Source: Planctomycetota bacterium
GTDB taxonomy: Bacteria > Planctomycetota > Phycisphaerae > UBA1845
Length of the DNA stretch: 64,000 nucleotides
Reading direction: 5' to 3'
Assembly: GCA_016200265.1 (NCBI GenBank)
Contig: JACQFE010000038.1
Span: 13,539 to 77,538, forward strand
Positions 11,222 to 47,067 of the stretch are shown here, piece by piece. Position numbers and translations under genes: made by a program. A model generated the notes under the pieces. It did no database searches. It saw only the letters and a program-made list of their open reading frames with translations, and was not told the DNA's origin. How positions within the stretch are numbered: position 1 is the first letter of the stretch; each line of letters opens with the position of its first letter.

Positions 11222-11969
11222 GGCCGTGGAGCGGGCGGTAAGCCGAATCCTGTTCGTCCGCGTTTACTTACCGCTTCCTTACGGGGCGCGGCTCTGTTCA
11301 AGAAACCGCGCGAACTGAAGTTCGCGGCTCGCGTTTGGGCGCGGCTCGGAAAATATATGGTGCATCAAGATGCACCCTACGAAGTGCGGACGCGGCGATC
11401 ATGTGTCTAGGTCGGCGGTCACCCGTCGACTCAAGCGCCCTACCCGCAGCTGTCGAGCTTTCGCTCATCGAGGCGGGCCGCCTCTCGCTGCTTATTTGGG
11501 CTTGCTGGCGGTGGGGTTTGCCCTGCCGCGATGGTCACCCACCGCGCGGTGCGCTCTTACCGCACCATTTCACCCTTACCGGGGAAACGTTGAAACATCG
11601 AAAAGTCGAAATAACGTCGTTCAATAGAGGAGAAAATCGAGCGATCCGAACGATCATTTCACAAGGCGGCCAAGGAGATTCAAAGCCCCTAAGAAAATCC
11701 AATGAATCGTCGGGCCGATTGACCGACCGATTCGATTCAAATGTCCTGCCCTTTTGATCCCAAGGTGCTTTCCTTTTCGATATTTCGACTTTTCGATGTT
11801 TCAACGCTTCCCCGGCGGTTTGTTTTCTGTGGCACTTTCCCTCGGCTTACGCCGGGTTGGCGTTACCAACCACCGTACCCTGTCCAGTTCGGACTTTCCT
11901 CTCGAAGGGTATTGGCCGCAAGCATCGAGATTGCGCCCTTCGAGCGATCGCCTTGCCCGCTCCACGGCC
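11222..11969 (-). ncRNA. rnpB: RNase P RNA, bacterial type A, unusually long (about 748 nt)
   Basis: All conserved blocks are present on the minus strand:
- GAGGAAAGTCCGAAC (11901-11887).
- ACAGAAAACAAACCGCC.
- AAGGGTGAAATGGTGCGGTAAGAGCGCACC (about 11577-11548).
- GGCAAACCCCACCGCCAGCAAGCCCAAATAAG.
- GGGTAGGGCGCTTGAG.
- CCTAGAC.
- ACAGGATTCGGCTTA.
P1 is formed by GGCCGTGGAGCGGGC (11969-11955) pairing with GCCCGCTCCACGGCC (11236-11222). P4 shows compensatory changes relative to my recollection of E. coli M1 RNA (AAGUCCGAA pairs with UUCGGCUU). The ends are good to about 10 nt. Confidence 0.88.
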
Positions 11970-29524: not shown

Positions 29525-31939
29525 TTGGCTATTGAGGTTTTCTTCTTGTTTGTAGACGGCAGTGACGAGGAGCGTGACTTGGTAAGCCATCCCGAGAACA
29601 TCTCAGCCTCAAGCCAAGGCGAAGCGCTTCCCCGCGCGAATACGGTTCCGCCTTCACCGGTCACTCTGGGCGATTTCGAACTTCGCCAAGAAATTGGGAG
29701 GGGAGGGATGGGCACGGTCTATGAGGCCTGGCAGAAATCGCTCCAGCGAGTGATCGCATTGAAAGTGCTTGCCCGCCATATCAGTGGCACACCGCGGGCC
29801 GTCATGCGGTTTCAACGAGAGGCCCAAGCCGCGGCAAAACTCCACCATACACACATTGTGCCGATCTTCGCGCAGGGTGAAGTGGACGGGAATTACTTTT
29901 ATGCGATGGAACTAGTCCATGGCCGCAGCATCAACGCGGTCATTGCAAGCCTACGAAGCGCGCAATTCGACAACGCGACGACGGCCAATCTCCAGGAAAC
30001 GGTTGACCTGAAGCGAACGGACGGCTCGGCAGCCCGTAGCGCAGAAACATTGGGCGGCGTCAACATGGATTCTCCAGGCAGCAGCGGGGCGATGCGAGCG
30101 ACCCGCGGTGCCCGCGTCGAACTGGATTTCAATGAAATTGCGAGACACATCTCCGATGTTGCCGACGCGCTCGATTATGCGCATGGACAAGGGGTCATTC
30201 ACCGCGACATCAAACCGCACAATTTGCTTCTTGGAGATGATGGTCGAATCCGCGTATCAGATTTTGGATTGGCGAGGCTCGCGGAACAGCCCGGTGTCAC
30301 CGTTACCGGGGAACTTCTGGGATCGCCGCTCTACATGTCGTCGGAGCAGATCCGCGGCAATCCTGATGACGTTGACGCGCGGGCTGATATTTACTCGCTG
30401 GGCGCCACGCTGTATGAATGGCTCACTCTTCAACCCCCTTATCCCGGTGAGACGCGCGAGCAGGTCATCAGCATGATCCTGAGCAGCGAGCCGAGACCGG
30501 CCCGCGCCTGCAATCCCGCCGTACCGGTGGACCTTGAGACGATTTGCATGAACGCGATCGAACGCGATCGCGAAAGACGATATCGCACGGCGGGAGAAAT
30601 GCGCGATGATTTGCGGCGTTTTCTCGTTGGGCGAACTATTGTGGCCCGCCGGGCGAGCATCCGCAAGCGTCTGGCCAAATTCGTTTCCCGTCACCCGAAC
30701 GCGGCGATCGCAGCGTTTGCGTTGATCCTGGCCTTCCTGCTCGGGTTGCAGATTCTCCAAAAGCAAAAAAAAGTCGAGACGTTTACGGCCAAGGCGGACG
30801 AAGCGACGCGCCGCGCTGAGGAAACCGCGGTCGAGAACGAGACGCTGCTGAACATGGTGGCCTATCTGCAGGGCGGACCGGCAAAAGTAGCGGAGGCTTT
30901 CGTCGGGGGCATCGCCCAGGCCGACCCCGCAAAGATCATTTCCGCGCAGATGCAGTCCGGCAATCCGCAAACGGAGGCCGTGGGCAAGCCCGCGGGCATC
31001 GCCCGCCGAGCCGCTATTGATTTCTTTGGGGCCGTGACGCCCAAAGATTGGCCGCCTCCGCAGCGGCCGGGTGAGGACGGATCGTTTGCGGACTTGCGCG
31101 ACGCCATGACAAAATGGTCCGCGGGCGATGTGCCCACGGCGTTAATCGTCTTAAGCAAATACCTTGATGGTCATGCGTCCGATCTTGCGGCCTTGCAGCT
31201 GCGGGCCATTCTGAACGCACAGATCGGCCAATACGATGACATGGAGCGGGATACCCAGACCATGACGGCGCTGGGTGAGCATGTGGCGCATGCCAAGACG
31301 TGGCACGGTCTTTCCCAGCTTCTTCGCATGCAGCTCAACGAGTGCGTTGATGAGTTTTCCGCCGCCATCGAGATCGATCGCAAGCTTCCATGGCCGCACG
31401 TGCTTCGCGGGCTTGCGTTGATTCAACTGGGCAGGGGTTCGGAGGCCCTTGCGGAGTTCGACACCGTGCTGGTCAATTCACCCAGGATGATCACAGCGCT
31501 TCTGGGCCGCGCGACCGCAAGAAAGTCGATGAATTTCATCGAGGCGGCGATTCCCGATGCCACTGAAGTGCTGCAGATTGAGGCGAACAACGCGGATGCG
31601 CTGGCGATTCGTTCCGAGTGCTACCTGGCGGCGGGAGAACTCGCACCGGCCCGTGAAGACATTGATCGAGCGATGCGAATCGCAGGACATACTCCGGGGC
31701 TTTTGCTTCAAAAAGCGGCGATCCAAATGGCTGAGCGAGCCCAGGAGGGGTCGAAGCCAAAGAGTGACGGGAAGTCCACTCCGAAGCAGCTTGCCCCGAC
31801 CGGAACGGACGTTGAAGAACACAAGTCGAGCGGTCCGTTTCTCGATTGGTGGAATCGTCATTCGCCTCCCCGCGGCGCCGGCGGACCCGGGGCCGGTGCA
31901 GGCTTGCGGATTCATTTTCCCAGTGCATTCAAGAATTGA
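29525..31939 (+). CDS. Ser/Thr protein kinase with TM segment and C-terminal TPR domain
   Basis: FELRQEIGRGGMGTVYEA...ALKVL; HRDIKPHNLLL; DFGLA; SPLYMSSEQ. The TM helix is AAIAAFALILAFLLGLQIL and the C-terminus has TPR-like repeats. The start is uncertain (TTG 29525 or TTG about 29578). Confidence 0.85.
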   Translation: MAIEVFFLFVDGSDEERDLVSHPENISASSQGEALPRANTVPPSPVTLGDFELRQEIGRGGMGTVYEAWQKSLQRVIALKVLARHISGTPRAVMRFQREAQAAAKLHHTHIVPIFAQGEVDGNYFYAMELVHGRSINAVIASLRSAQFDNATTANLQETVDLKRTDGSAARSAETLGGVNMDSPGSSGAMRATRGARVELDFNEIARHISDVADALDYAHGQGVIHRDIKPHNLLLGDDGRIRVSDFGLARLAEQPGVTVTGELLGSPLYMSSEQIRGNPDDVDARADIYSLGATLYEWLTLQPPYPGETREQVISMILSSEPRPARACNPAVPVDLETICMNAIERDRERRYRTAGEMRDDLRRFLVGRTIVARRASIRKRLAKFVSRHPNAAIAAFALILAFLLGLQILQKQKKVETFTAKADEATRRAEETAVENETLLNMVAYLQGGPAKVAEAFVGGIAQADPAKIISAQMQSGNPQTEAVGKPAGIARRAAIDFFGAVTPKDWPPPQRPGEDGSFADLRDAMTKWSAGDVPTALIVLSKYLDGHASDLAALQLRAILNAQIGQYDDMERDTQTMTALGEHVAHAKTWHGLSQLLRMQLNECVDEFSAAIEIDRKLPWPHVLRGLALIQLGRGSEALAEFDTVLVNSPRMITALLGRATARKSMNFIEAAIPDATEVLQIEANNADALAIRSECYLAAGELAPAREDIDRAMRIAGHTPGLLLQKAAIQMAERAQEGSKPKSDGKSTPKQLAPTGTDVEEHKSSGPFLDWWNRHSPPRGAGGPGAGAGLRIHFPSAFKN

Positions 31940-32387
31940 ATCAATACGCGATCCCGATCCCGCTCACGCGATCCGAGCCTATCTGGTTGAGCGGATTACC
32001 GACGTTTGTCTTGGGTTTCGGTTTTCGCGAAGCGGCGGTCCGGGCGGGCAAAATGTCAACAAAGTAAGCACGCGCGTCGATCTGGCATTCGACCTTGACC
32101 GCTCGCGACTGTCCGAACAGGAGAAAAGCCGAGTGCGCCACGTCTTGAAGTCGCGCATTCATGCGGATGGCGCGCTCCACGTCGTGGCGTCTCGGCATCG
32201 CACACAGTCGGCCAATCGAAACGCCGCGATTAAGCGTCTGCATGAATTGCTTTTGCAAGTCTTGACGCCGCGAAAACCTCGTCATTCCACAAGACCCACG
32301 CGAGGCTCGCGGGAACGTCGTTTGGGCGCGAAACGAAAAATAGGCGAGAAAAAGTCACTTCGGCGAAGCTTGATGATTAGCATCTGA
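31923..32387 (+). CDS. arfB: Alternative ribosome-rescue factor ArfB (peptidyl-tRNA hydrolase, GGQ domain)
   Basis: SRSGGPGGQNVNKVSTRVDLAFDL... plus the basic C-terminal tail RKPRHSTRPTRGSRERRLGAKRKIGEKKSLRRS. The nearest in-frame start is GTG at 31923, overlapping the kinase gene by 17 nt. The track ORF start 31557 is an out-of-frame read-through of the kinase. Confidence 0.8.
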   Translation: MHSRIESIRDPDPAHAIRAYLVERITDVCLGFRFSRSGGPGGQNVNKVSTRVDLAFDLDRSRLSEQEKSRVRHVLKSRIHADGALHVVASRHRTQSANRNAAIKRLHELLLQVLTPRKPRHSTRPTRGSRERRLGAKRKIGEKKSLRRSLMISI

Positions 32388-32407
32388 TTTCTTGGAAAAC
32401 GAAGGAG

Positions 32408-32806
32408 ATGATCATGGCGGCAACAGGCTCCGCGAAACGATTCCGATGGGACGAACTGACGACGGATGCGCCGATGGCATTACTCGATCGAAGGCGGGTA
32501 ATCGGCGAGCACGCCATGATTTCGCAGGTGCATCTGCAAAAGGGTTGTTTTGTGCCCAGCCATGCCCACGCCAATGAGCAATTCGTCTGCATCATGAAGG
32601 GTCGGCTGCATTTCGTCCTGAATGAAGGCTCAGAGTTGCTGCGTGAGAACGTCACCGTCGGCGCTGGGGAAGTGCTGCATCTGCCACCGAACGTGCCGCA
32701 TTCGGCCGAGGCCTTGGAGGACACAATCGTGCTCGACGTGTTTTCACCGCCGAGCCAAAAGACGGGCATCGACGGTCCCGCGCAGGCTCGTGGTCACTCG
32801 GATTGA
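32408..32806 (+). CDS. Cupin-domain protein
   Basis: 132 aa with a two-motif cupin pattern (G..VPSHAHANEQFVCIMKG ... GEVLHLPPNVPHSAE). Confidence 0.72.
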   Translation: MIMAATGSAKRFRWDELTTDAPMALLDRRRVIGEHAMISQVHLQKGCFVPSHAHANEQFVCIMKGRLHFVLNEGSELLRENVTVGAGEVLHLPPNVPHSAEALEDTIVLDVFSPPSQKTGIDGPAQARGHSD

Positions 32807-32856
32807 ACGCTCAGCCTGTTGGAGCGTTACGAGCGATTGGACAGAATTGTATCGCA

Positions 32857-34408: not shown

Positions 34409-38830
<4,422 letters not shown>

Positions 38831-38908
38831 CGTGTCTTGATCCTTTGGTGCCTCTTCGTGACGCCCGGCGAGGGTGGCGGCCTCGCGAAGCGATTCGTCT
38901 TTGTCTTG

Positions 38909-39424
38909 CTAAGCGTTCACTGTGGTGTTTGTCGTTTCAAGAATCGGCGTTGAGTTCGCCGCGGCAATGTTGACGCCGGCGGGCAGCTCAAGAGCCACCA
39001 GGCCGCGCATCCGCCGAAAGCCGAGTTCTTCGCAAAAATCCACTTCCGTGCCGTGAGCCAGTGCTTCAATTCGATCGGCACCCTGCAATCGGAGTACGTC
39101 AACGACCCGGCGGGCCATTTCGCGGGCGATTCCCGCTTCATCATGTTCCACGCGGCCGTCAGTGCGCGTCAGACACGCTGGACCCTGATACGCCGGATCG
39201 AGCTTGCATTCCGCCAGACGACCCCAGGTGCCTGCAATCACTCCACGAGCGAAACCAATCAGTTCGTCATGGCGCCGGGCGGTGACAAAACAGAAGGTGT
39301 TTTCTATCAGCTCCCGAACCTTGGTTCGATTCGCCGCGAACGAATTCCGCTGCCGCGCGTAGAAATCGAGCAGCTCGTCGACCGTCGGCGGCGAATTCGA
39401 TTCAAACACAATGTCATTGAACAC
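38909..39424 (-). CDS. GNAT-family N-acetyltransferase-like protein located between rpoB and rpoC
   Basis: 171 aa. LIGFARGV...AGIAREMARRVVDVLRLQGADRIEALA...FCEELGFRRM follows the GNAT motif A/B layout, with a divergent acetyl-CoA loop. The GTG start is preceded by GAAGGAGAT. It is on the same strand as the flanking rpo genes, with gaps of about 70 and about 78 nt. Confidence 0.68.
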   Translation of the reverse strand: MFNDIVFESNSPPTVDELLDFYARQRNSFAANRTKVRELIENTFCFVTARRHDELIGFARGVIAGTWGRLAECKLDPAYQGPACLTRTDGRVEHDEAGIAREMARRVVDVLRLQGADRIEALAHGTEVDFCEELGFRRMRGLVALELPAGVNIAAANSTPILETTNTTVNA

Positions 39425-39493
39425 GCTCGATCTCCTTCATCCAGATGCGATCGAATTCGCCGCCGCCGTCGCATCGGCGCCCGAATGCGGCCC

Positions 39494-43270
<3,777 letters not shown>

Positions 43271-45886: not shown

Positions 45887-46513
45887 CTACTCGACTTTTT
45901 CCAACTGCCAATAGCCAACTTCCACTGATGTGGAACGCCCGAAGATCGTCACCAGCACGGAAACCATTCCTCGCCGATCGTCCACGGCCTCGACCTCGCC
46001 CTCGAAGCTCTCAAAGGCGCCATCGGTAATCTTGACCTTGTCACCCTTCTTGATCTGCAGACCGGACAGACCCGGCTGCTCTTCCGCCTTCTCCGAAGCC
46101 GCCAGCATCGCGGTGACTTCATGATCCGGCATACTGGTGGGCTTGCCATCGGAGCCGATGAAATCGCCGACACCGGTCGTTTCCTTCACGAGGAACCAGA
46201 CGTTTTCCGCGATCGAGCCGTCCTCCTCGCAGGCCATTTCTACGAAAACGTACCCGGGATAGAGTTTACGCTCGACAATCTTGAGCACGCCGGCCTTCAT
46301 GCGCTTTTCTTTGAGCGTCGGCACCAAAATCCGACCGACGCGACTTTCCAGGGCTTCGATTCGCACTTTTCGGGCGAGCGCATCTCGAACCTGCTCCTCC
46401 TTGTTCGACGCCACGCGGAGCACATACCACTTCATGCCCGGCGCGCTCAGCGGAACCGTCTCACTTACGGCCGGGGGGGAAGCGACAGATTGTCCTTGCT
46501 CCTGCTCGGTCAT
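45887..46513 (-). CDS. nusG: Transcription termination/antitermination factor NusG
   Basis: MKWYVLRVASNKEEQVRDAL... (NGN domain) and a C-terminal KOW (KGDKVKITDGAFESFEGEVEAVD). The ATG at 46513 overlaps the secE stop (ATGA). The track ORF start 46789 is over-extended into secE. Confidence 0.92.
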   Translation of the reverse strand: MTEQEQGQSVASPPAVSETVPLSAPGMKWYVLRVASNKEEQVRDALARKVRIEALESRVGRILVPTLKEKRMKAGVLKIVERKLYPGYVFVEMACEEDGSIAENVWFLVKETTGVGDFIGSDGKPTSMPDHEVTAMLAASEKAEEQPGLSGLQIKKGDKVKITDGAFESFEGEVEAVDDRRGMVSVLVTIFGRSTSVEVGYWQLEKVE

Positions 46514-47067
46514 TTCTTGAGCTTCAGAACGCCGATCGCCTGGAACAGCGTTTGGAAAACGATATCCACGACGAACAAATACAGAGCCATTGCCATGGAG
46601 AACAAGATCACCACTTTGGTGGACCCAACGACTTCCCGCCGGCTCGACCAATTTACCTTTTTCATCTCGCCTTCCGTTGCAATCATGAAGTCGCTGGCGG
46701 ATCGGTTGACGTAGGCCGCCCACCAGATCAATCCACCCATGATCACCAGGAAAAGAATGGGGATACCCGGCGTAATCAACAAACGCCAAGCTTCGTCGCC
46801 TTCGTACGGTTGCAGGCGCTCATACAAAAAGTACGAGCCCCAGGCCGCGAGTGCGGCGCCGCACGCCACAGTTCCCATCCGAATGGCCTTGCCTTGTTCA
46901 GGTTTGTATTGCTTGAAAAAACCGCCGCCACCACCCGTAGGTCGCGGACCAAAGTCATCGCCATTTCGGGTTGAAGGCGGCTCGCGAGGCGGATTCGCCG
47001 GTTCACGGTCGGTTCGCTGTGGCGTAATTGTCGTTGTGCTGGATTCATCCATTGAAATGTTCGCCAT
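46510..47067 (-). CDS. secE: Preprotein translocase subunit SecE (long form, with Pro/Gly-rich N-terminal extension)
   Basis: The C-terminus ...EMKKVNWSSRREVVGSTKVVILFSMAMALYLFVVDIVFQTLF is the conserved SecE TM segment. It sits in the canonical position between tRNA-Trp and nusG. Confidence 0.82.
   Translation of the reverse strand: MANISMDESSTTTITPQRTDREPANPPREPPSTRNGDDFGPRPTGGGGGFFKQYKPEQGKAIRMGTVACGAALAAWGSYFLYERLQPYEGDEAWRLLITPGIPILFLVIMGGLIWWAAYVNRSASDFMIATEGEMKKVNWSSRREVVGSTKVVILFSMAMALYLFVVDIVFQTLFQAIGVLKLKK

Follow-up and report, generated by a model that had tools for sequence, protein, structure and literature searches.

A gene for a GNAT-fold protein holds a fixed position between rpoB and rpoC in one lineage of Phycisphaerae

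The genes for the beta and beta' subunits of RNA polymerase (RNAP), rpoB and rpoC, are neighbours in almost all bacteria and form one of the most stable bacterial gene pairs. What, then, is the role of a third gene that lies between them? We analysed this question in a stretch of 64,000 nucleotides from a Planctomycetota bacterium of the class Phycisphaerae (contig JACQFE010000038.1, positions 13,539 to 77,538; hereafter the window). On the minus strand of the window, an open reading frame (ORF) of 171 codons separates rpoB (43354-39494; 1286 aa; Pfam Rpb2 domains 1, 2, 3, 45, 6 and 7, domain 6 at E 1e-126) from rpoC (38830-34409; 1473 aa; Pfam Rpb1 domains 1-5). A first-pass annotation, made from the letters alone, had described a GNAT-like ORF on the same strand as both neighbours, about 70 nt after rpoB and about 78 nt before rpoC. 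The ORF map and the sequence bear this layout out. Positions 38831-39493 are the entire rpoB-rpoC spacer, which divides into 69 nt after rpoB (39493-39425), the ORF with its GTG start and TAA stop (39424-38909; supported by translation, Pfam, homologues and AlphaFold) and 78 nt before rpoC (38908-38831).

The gap after rpoB contains the Shine-Dalgarno sequence GAAGGAGAT at 39438-39430. The ORF does have the ribosome-binding site of its own that had been claimed for it, but the distance to the GTG is 5 nt and not 6 nt. Homologue alignments start at the same residue (MF.DI...), and the GTG is therefore the true start. The gap before rpoC holds a GC-rich hairpin without a T-run (RNAfold, -17.1 kcal/mol). 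A pattern scan of 38600-39800 found no sigma-70-like promoter and no intrinsic-terminator-like site, in agreement with what had been noticed by eye in both gaps, with the reservation that the sigma-70 consensus may not fit the promoters of this phylum. No Rfam family was found in the rpoB-rpoC region of the window.

The ORF is a real gene under purifying selection. An identical protein is already recorded as a hypothetical protein of a Planctomycetes metagenome-assembled genome (MAG). A word-indexed search gave 785 relatives of the window protein, the best 120 of which were 56-82% identical to it and about 165 aa long, and 730 further relatives, a second subclade, were obtained when a divergent member was used as the query (P0123, 44% identical to the window protein). 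When each GTDB species was scanned through one genome, 159 of these species-representative genomes encoded a relative. Among the matches listed, the organism labels are nearly all Phycisphaerae, Phycisphaerales or Planctomycetota MAGs, and there is no cultured isolate among the homologues listed. Strain labels such as NC_groundwater, BroJett003 and HBSAPP02 point to groundwater and bioreactors as sources. Source annotations of the family read only 'hypothetical protein' or 'GNAT family N-acetyltransferase', with some automated names from the Joint Genome Institute (JGI) reading 'RimI-like'. The rpoBC-embedded family is tight in sequence space: when 1.84 billion representatives at 50% identity were scanned exhaustively, 12 matches (mostly fragments) fell below 1e-30, followed by a drop to about 75 bits, the level of distant relatives. 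In a codon-level analysis of 81 distinct genes, the ratio of non-synonymous to synonymous substitution rates (dN/dS) was 0.04-0.21 for the closest pairs and <1 for all pairs, the values of distant pairs being inflated by saturation of synonymous sites. Across 81 species-level sequences, the set used for the residue counts given below unless another is named, 26 residues are invariant. Purifying selection, one of the checks proposed in the first-pass annotation, is evident from the low dN/dS of the close pairs.

Gene order in relatives was analysed by tblastn, using the C-terminus of the window rpoB and the N-terminus of the window rpoC, in 85 loci (the best 80 of the 159 species-representative loci and 5 loci from contig look-ups). 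The GNAT gene came directly after rpoB in 85/85 loci and directly before rpoC in 83, while the remaining two end at a contig edge; the position is conserved in every locus of the set. The median gap was 54 nt between rpoB and the GNAT gene (84 loci) and 84.5 nt between the GNAT gene and rpoC (83 loci). The gene starts with ATG in 63 loci, GTG in 21 and TTG in one, and a GGAG-like motif stands upstream of most of these starts. Terminator-like hairpins were present in 3 of 84 rpoB-GNAT gaps and in 5 of 82 GNAT-rpoC gaps. We infer that the GNAT gene is co-transcribed with rpoB and rpoC. The first-pass annotation had already judged it a probable part of the rpoBC transcript, and the common strand, the short gaps and the rarity of terminator-like hairpins speak for this, if indirectly. 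Pairwise identity of the ORF product correlated with that of rpoB (r = 0.80) and of rpoC (r = 0.81), compared to 0.88 between rpoB and rpoC. These position and divergence data agree with one insertion in an ancestor and vertical descent ever since.

Literature searches turned up no account, for Planctomycetes, of a gene separating rpoB from rpoC or of a GNAT connected with rpoBC, and none of the family itself. Other departures from the usual rpoB-rpoC arrangement are the fused rpoBC of Helicobacter and Wolbachia and the split rpoC1/rpoC2 of cyanobacteria and plastids. These are likewise lineage-wide, vertically inherited rearrangements of a near-universal pair. However, the fused and split cases alter the polymerase genes themselves, whereas in Phycisphaerae a gene for an unrelated enzyme fold stands between two intact genes.

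The spacers on both sides of the GNAT gene vary in some of the loci. In locus L056 (6490-11790), about 5.3 kb of extra ORFs lie between the GNAT gene and rpoC, one of them with a dockerin domain and the others without a Pfam match; the GNAT-rpoC junction can therefore take further insertions. About 980 nt separate rpoB from the GNAT gene in L037 (5025-6000), where the spacer ORFs have no Pfam match, and about 720 nt separate the GNAT gene from rpoC in L064 (~1005-1765). In L045-L048 and L052, the rpoC tblastn match begins at query residue 4, the back-projected start codon is GTA and the GNAT-rpoC spacer is longer (168-225 nt). The N-terminus or the start site of rpoC probably differs in these five loci.

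Does the gene encode a GNAT? Profile and structure predictions both indicate that the ORF product is a GNAT fold, with a domain of about 150 residues and a short variable tail. A search with Pfam hidden Markov models gave Acetyltransf_1 at 24.5 bits, above its cut-off of 20.7, over residues 37-81 only. Acetyltransf_10 (19.8 bits, residues 96-139) and Acetyltransf_7 stayed under their cut-offs, and many family members have no precomputed Pfam match. AlphaFold2 gave a mean confidence (predicted local distance difference test, pLDDT) of 86.1 with a 30-sequence alignment, and of 92.6 with a predicted TM-score (pTM) of 0.83 when a 58-sequence alignment including distant relatives was used. Both models follow the GNAT order b1-a1-a2-b2-b3-b4-a3-b5-a4; the C-terminal b6 was not called as a strand by DSSP in the monomer model. 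Foldseek against the PDB returned the same best match for both models, rice SNAT1 (OsSNAT1 with acetyl-CoA), at E 1e-9 to 2e-8 (TM-score 0.68 by query and 0.75-0.82 by target, root-mean-square deviation 1.6-1.9 Å, 21% identity). More than 230 PDB GNAT chains matched the models at E <= 1e-3. The GNAT-like character suggested at first reading is in this way upheld by profile search and by two structure models. The plain GNAT description missed, however, that the motif for coenzyme A (CoA) is split by a conserved insertion and that a cysteine replaces the tyrosine expected in helix alpha4.

Motif A of GNATs (Q/R-x-x-G-x-G/A) lies in the b4-a3 loop, which binds the CoA pyrophosphate. In the family it is interrupted (Q80-G81, insert, G98-I99-A100) by 15 residues, PACLTRTDGRVEHDE, encoded by codons 82-96 (39137-39181); the profile alignment to SNAT1 shows them as a 15-column gap with YQG before it and xGIA after it. 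The SNAT1 sequence ...VDPSYQG-QGLGKAL... is aligned to ...LDPAYQG-PACVTRTDGRIEHDS-AGIAREM... of the family, and it is because of this interruption that the Pfam GNAT signal is split. The motif-A residues themselves are kept: Q80, G98 and A100 show complete or 99% conservation and are aligned to the Q, G and G of SNAT1. The insertion carries the invariant residues R91, E93, H94 and D95, and the model from the deeper alignment gives it the form of an ordered loop at pLDDT 91-96.

E72 and C73 in strand beta4 (codons at 39206-39211) are both invariant (81/81). E72 aligns with an Asp of SNAT1, stays invariant when the distant relatives are added to the alignment and is a likely candidate for the general base. 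Many GNATs use the Tyr of the alpha4 'FY' motif as proton donor. At this point the family has C131 (DFCEELGF, helix alpha4; codon 39032-39034), which is invariant in 81/81 and is a Tyr in SNAT1 and in the distant relatives. C131 in place of Tyr, together with C73, may mean a thiol-assisted or redox-sensitive chemistry. Acidic residues are prominent among the conserved positions (E72, E93, D95, E127 and D129 invariant; D64 99% conserved), the isoelectric point of the core being about 5.3, and this pattern suggests a cationic amine as the acceptor, for instance a polyamine or, on a protein, the N-terminus or a lysine side chain. The C-terminal tail (codons 149-171, 38912-38980) has no conserved columns after about residue 148 and a pLDDT of 72-82. 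A four-cysteine Zn or Fe-S site was considered when Cys 45, 73, 84 and 131 were found invariant in 30 sequences; it was dropped, as C45 is kept in 69/81 and C84 in 56/81, and C73 and C131 are the only invariant cysteines in the larger set.

The insertion is not confined to the rpoBC-embedded proteins. Distant relatives (e.g. P0148 of a Chloroflexota MAG and P0150 of a Planctomycetota MAG), about 23-28% identical, have the same insertion pattern, QG-x7-G-xx-[IV]-E-x-D-xx-G. Y22, R60, E72, Q80 and D95 are invariant across the rpoBC family and these relatives, and E93 nearly so. By contrast, the canonical Tyr of 'FY' is still present in the distant relatives, whereas C73, C131, H94 and R91 are missing from them. 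With the insertion in common and with residues and gene contexts that differ, the rpoBC-embedded proteins would therefore be a derived, specialised subfamily of a wider GNAT group that is likewise uncharacterised, and the distant insertion-bearing GNATs are probably the parent family.

Among solved structures, the rice serotonin N-acetyltransferase SNAT1 (PDB 6K5M, 7DAI-7DAL) is also the best sequence match of the family (profile E 9e-4). Both have a single-domain GNAT topology of about 150 residues, a 'DP.YQG' end of beta4, a 'G-x-G/A' start of alpha3 and a 'VDF.xxLGF' alpha4. The SNAT1 motif A, however, is unbroken (YQGQGLG), compared to the 15 extra invariant-rich residues of the family, and SNAT1 has Tyr where the family has C131 and Val where it has C73. 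SNAT1 is also a plastid enzyme without a link to RNAP genes, and with 21% identity it is not an orthologue. Considering the 21% identity, the insertion and the change of Tyr to Cys, the family does not belong to the SNAT1/plastid GNAT1/GNAT2/GNAT3 group, and the likeness is one of fold only. Arabidopsis plastid GNAT2, a close SNAT1 homologue, acetylates both protein lysines and protein N-termini (PMC11585782). The fold match to SNAT1 therefore cannot separate protein from small-molecule substrates.

A second comparison is with the Rim enzymes. RimI, RimJ and RimL are small GNATs that modify S18, S5 and L7/L12. They resemble the family in size and fold, and their targets belong to the translation machinery, but the family differs from them in the motif-A insertion and in the Cys for Tyr. 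The window protein matched no NCBIfam family at E <= 1, although that library has a RimI equivalog model and further models for named acetyltransferases. P0123 and P0018 had no NCBIfam match or one of about 15 bits only, and the distant relatives reached 13-26 bits on the rimI model TIGR01575, compared to its cut-off of 86.4. The rim genes are not known to lie inside rpoBC. No PADLOC defence model was matched. A GNAT toxin of the TacT/AtaT type was also considered and rejected: the neighbours are rpoB and rpoC, the spacers of 69 and 78 nt are too small for an antitoxin ORF and PADLOC gave no match.

How might such a protein act? We infer its catalytic activity, the roles of its residues and its target as follows. 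A GNAT gene would have entered the rpoB-rpoC junction once, in the common ancestor of one Phycisphaerae lineage, and would since have been inherited vertically under purifying selection, with transcription along with rpoB and rpoC and a ribosome-binding site of its own for translation. The product would be an acyl-CoA-dependent N-acyltransferase acting on a cationic amine, with E72 as general base and with the defining residues Q80, G98 and A100 of the split CoA-pyrophosphate motif retained, while the insertion loop, Cys73 and Cys131 would shape specificity or chemistry. Going by its conserved residues, the protein is probably an active acyltransferase. Its acceptor may be a protein of the machinery encoded in the same gene cluster: RNAP beta or beta', L7/L12 (the gene for which sits two genes upstream of the ORF) or a neighbour. 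We propose such an acceptor because expression is locked to rpoBC, and favour it because the gene never left the junction in the loci examined and the residue changes of the subfamily coincide with the operon location. A housekeeping GNAT whose substrate is a transcription or translation protein is accordingly the reading we prefer, tentatively.

Several observations weigh against this preference. No computation in the present analysis ties the protein to RNAP or to the ribosome. The structures that rank next after SNAT1 in Foldseek are polyamine, aminoglycoside and other GNATs, which are small-molecule enzymes. Where the contig was long enough to tell, the genes of the distant relatives are not beside RNAP genes, but next to purA, in a recombinase-bearing region or beside transporter genes. 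The case for co-transcription is made from sequence, and promoters of the phylum may depart from the consensus that was scanned. The split motif A and the change of Tyr to Cys could mean an altered or lost activity. Finally, the rpoB-rpoC junction is not the only core operon affected. A gene for BioY is a second lineage-wide insertion, found in the order rpsL-BioY-rpsG in 49 of 52 covered related loci by tblastn (it is absent in L038, L042 and L051). Core operons of this lineage thus accept passengers of unrelated function, and guilt by association loses weight accordingly.

The strongest competitor draws on some of these observations. The protein could be a metabolic GNAT for a small cation (a polyamine, an arylalkylamine or an amino sugar) that is a mere passenger of rpoBC, gaining strong, growth-rate-coupled expression and nothing else from its position. 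Somewhat unlikely when taken by itself, this explanation is nearly as likely as a machinery-protein target. The best structural matches are small-molecule GNATs (SNAT1 for serotonin, DpA for polyamine, SSAT and aminoglycoside acetyltransferases), the invariant residues surrounding the active site are acidic, BioY is lodged in the same way between rpsL and rpsG, and distant relatives with the same insertion occur in unrelated contexts. However, the position is fixed in every locus examined, with no translocation, where a mere passenger should at least now and then have moved or been lost. C73, C131, H94 and R91 arose together with the operon location, suggesting a new specialisation, and the protein acetylation by GNAT2, so close to SNAT1, means that the fold match does not favour small molecules.

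A closer bond to the polymerase than that of our preferred housekeeping enzyme is less probable again. The protein might be a dedicated, lineage-specific RNAP partner, either an acylase of beta/beta' (or of nascent machinery) or a bound GNAT accessory subunit, whose loop, Cys73 and Cys131 couple transcription to acetyl-CoA or to redox state; we consider this unlikely. The largely non-catalytic version, in which the GNAT domain is mainly a beta/beta'-binding module of an RNAP accessory subunit or regulator that senses acetyl-CoA or redox through Cys73/Cys131, is more doubtful still. Stable gene adjacency often signals physical interaction, and this gene lies between the two that encode the catalytic core. 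The strong Shine-Dalgarno sequence of its own and the mostly ATG starts are compatible with substantial synthesis, an invariant ordered loop breaks motif A and the catalytic Tyr is replaced. Divergence of the protein also runs parallel to that of rpoB and rpoC, to about the degree seen between these two, but plain vertical inheritance would give the same correlation, and the invariance of the presumed CoA-binding residues Q80, G98 and A100 and of E72 in beta4 fits catalysis.

The first-pass annotation had also raised the possibility of a resistance-type enzyme riding on a strong operon. A modifying enzyme for antibiotics or toxins (of the aminoglycoside, streptothricin or microcin type) would agree with the aminoglycoside acetyltransferases (AACs) among the fold matches, but identity to AAC structures is 10-16%, no NCBIfam model came at or near its cut-off, PADLOC gave no match and the gene is inherited strictly vertically, always at the one locus in 80 species-level genomes and without signs of mobility, which together make this suggestion very unlikely. 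That the ORF is spurious, a chance frame in a widened rpoB-rpoC spacer of a window with 56% G+C, where long chance ORFs are common in other frames, has a negligible probability and is refuted by the hundreds of homologues, the 26 invariant residues in 81 sequences, the dN/dS well below 1 and the confident fold prediction.

The fold is ordinary; the anatomy of the motif and the clade-wide fixation within rpoB-rpoC are not. A selected gene fixed at this junction throughout a clade is a lead to something whose supply must track RNAP synthesis. Should RNAP or a ribosomal protein be the target, in line with our tentative preference, this would be a rare modifying enzyme hard-wired in the polymerase operon and an entry to the transcription biology of the poorly studied, mostly uncultured Phycisphaerae. 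If the protein is an RNAP partner, it would represent a type of RNAP-associated factor not known before in bacteria, and one encoded within rpoBC. If it is a passenger, the locus is mainly a curiosity of operon evolution which, with BioY in rpsL-rpsG, makes a handy synapomorphy of the lineage. The split CoA motif and the Cys for the catalytic Tyr make the protein a GNAT variant of its own, whatever the target, and its chemistry is of interest.

The surroundings of the locus are those of the classical ribosomal-protein and RNAP cluster, which the window holds on its minus strand (Pfam and ORF map). Upstream of rpoB lie rplK (45871-45413), rplA (45374-44643), rplJ (44624-44112) and rplL (43945-43538), and rpoC is followed by rpsL (34384-33992), the BioY gene (33984-33370) and rpsG (33333-32857). 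BioY, the S-component of a biotin transporter (PF02632), stands there inside the normally contiguous str operon, and it was also seen at L001 (13368-13949), at L004 (13406-14029) and in most of L006-L080. Past rpsG (29525-32856), the str operon of the window has no fusA continuation, unlike that of L004. The next large gene beyond rpsG encodes a Ser/Thr protein kinase with tetratricopeptide repeats (TPR) in the opposite orientation (29525-31939, plus strand), and in L001 a PIF1-type helicase comes after rpsG.

Two further features of the window were unusual in length. The longest nusG ORF (45887-46789, minus strand) has 300 aa, with the NusG domain from residue 119, compared to 182-210 aa in the called NusG of relatives; either the true start is internal or the N-terminus is extended in the source organism. 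The bacterial RNase P RNA (11224-11963, minus strand; RF00010, 258 bits) is 740 nt long, compared to the 367 positions of the model, and therefore contains about 370 nt of inserted extra sequence.

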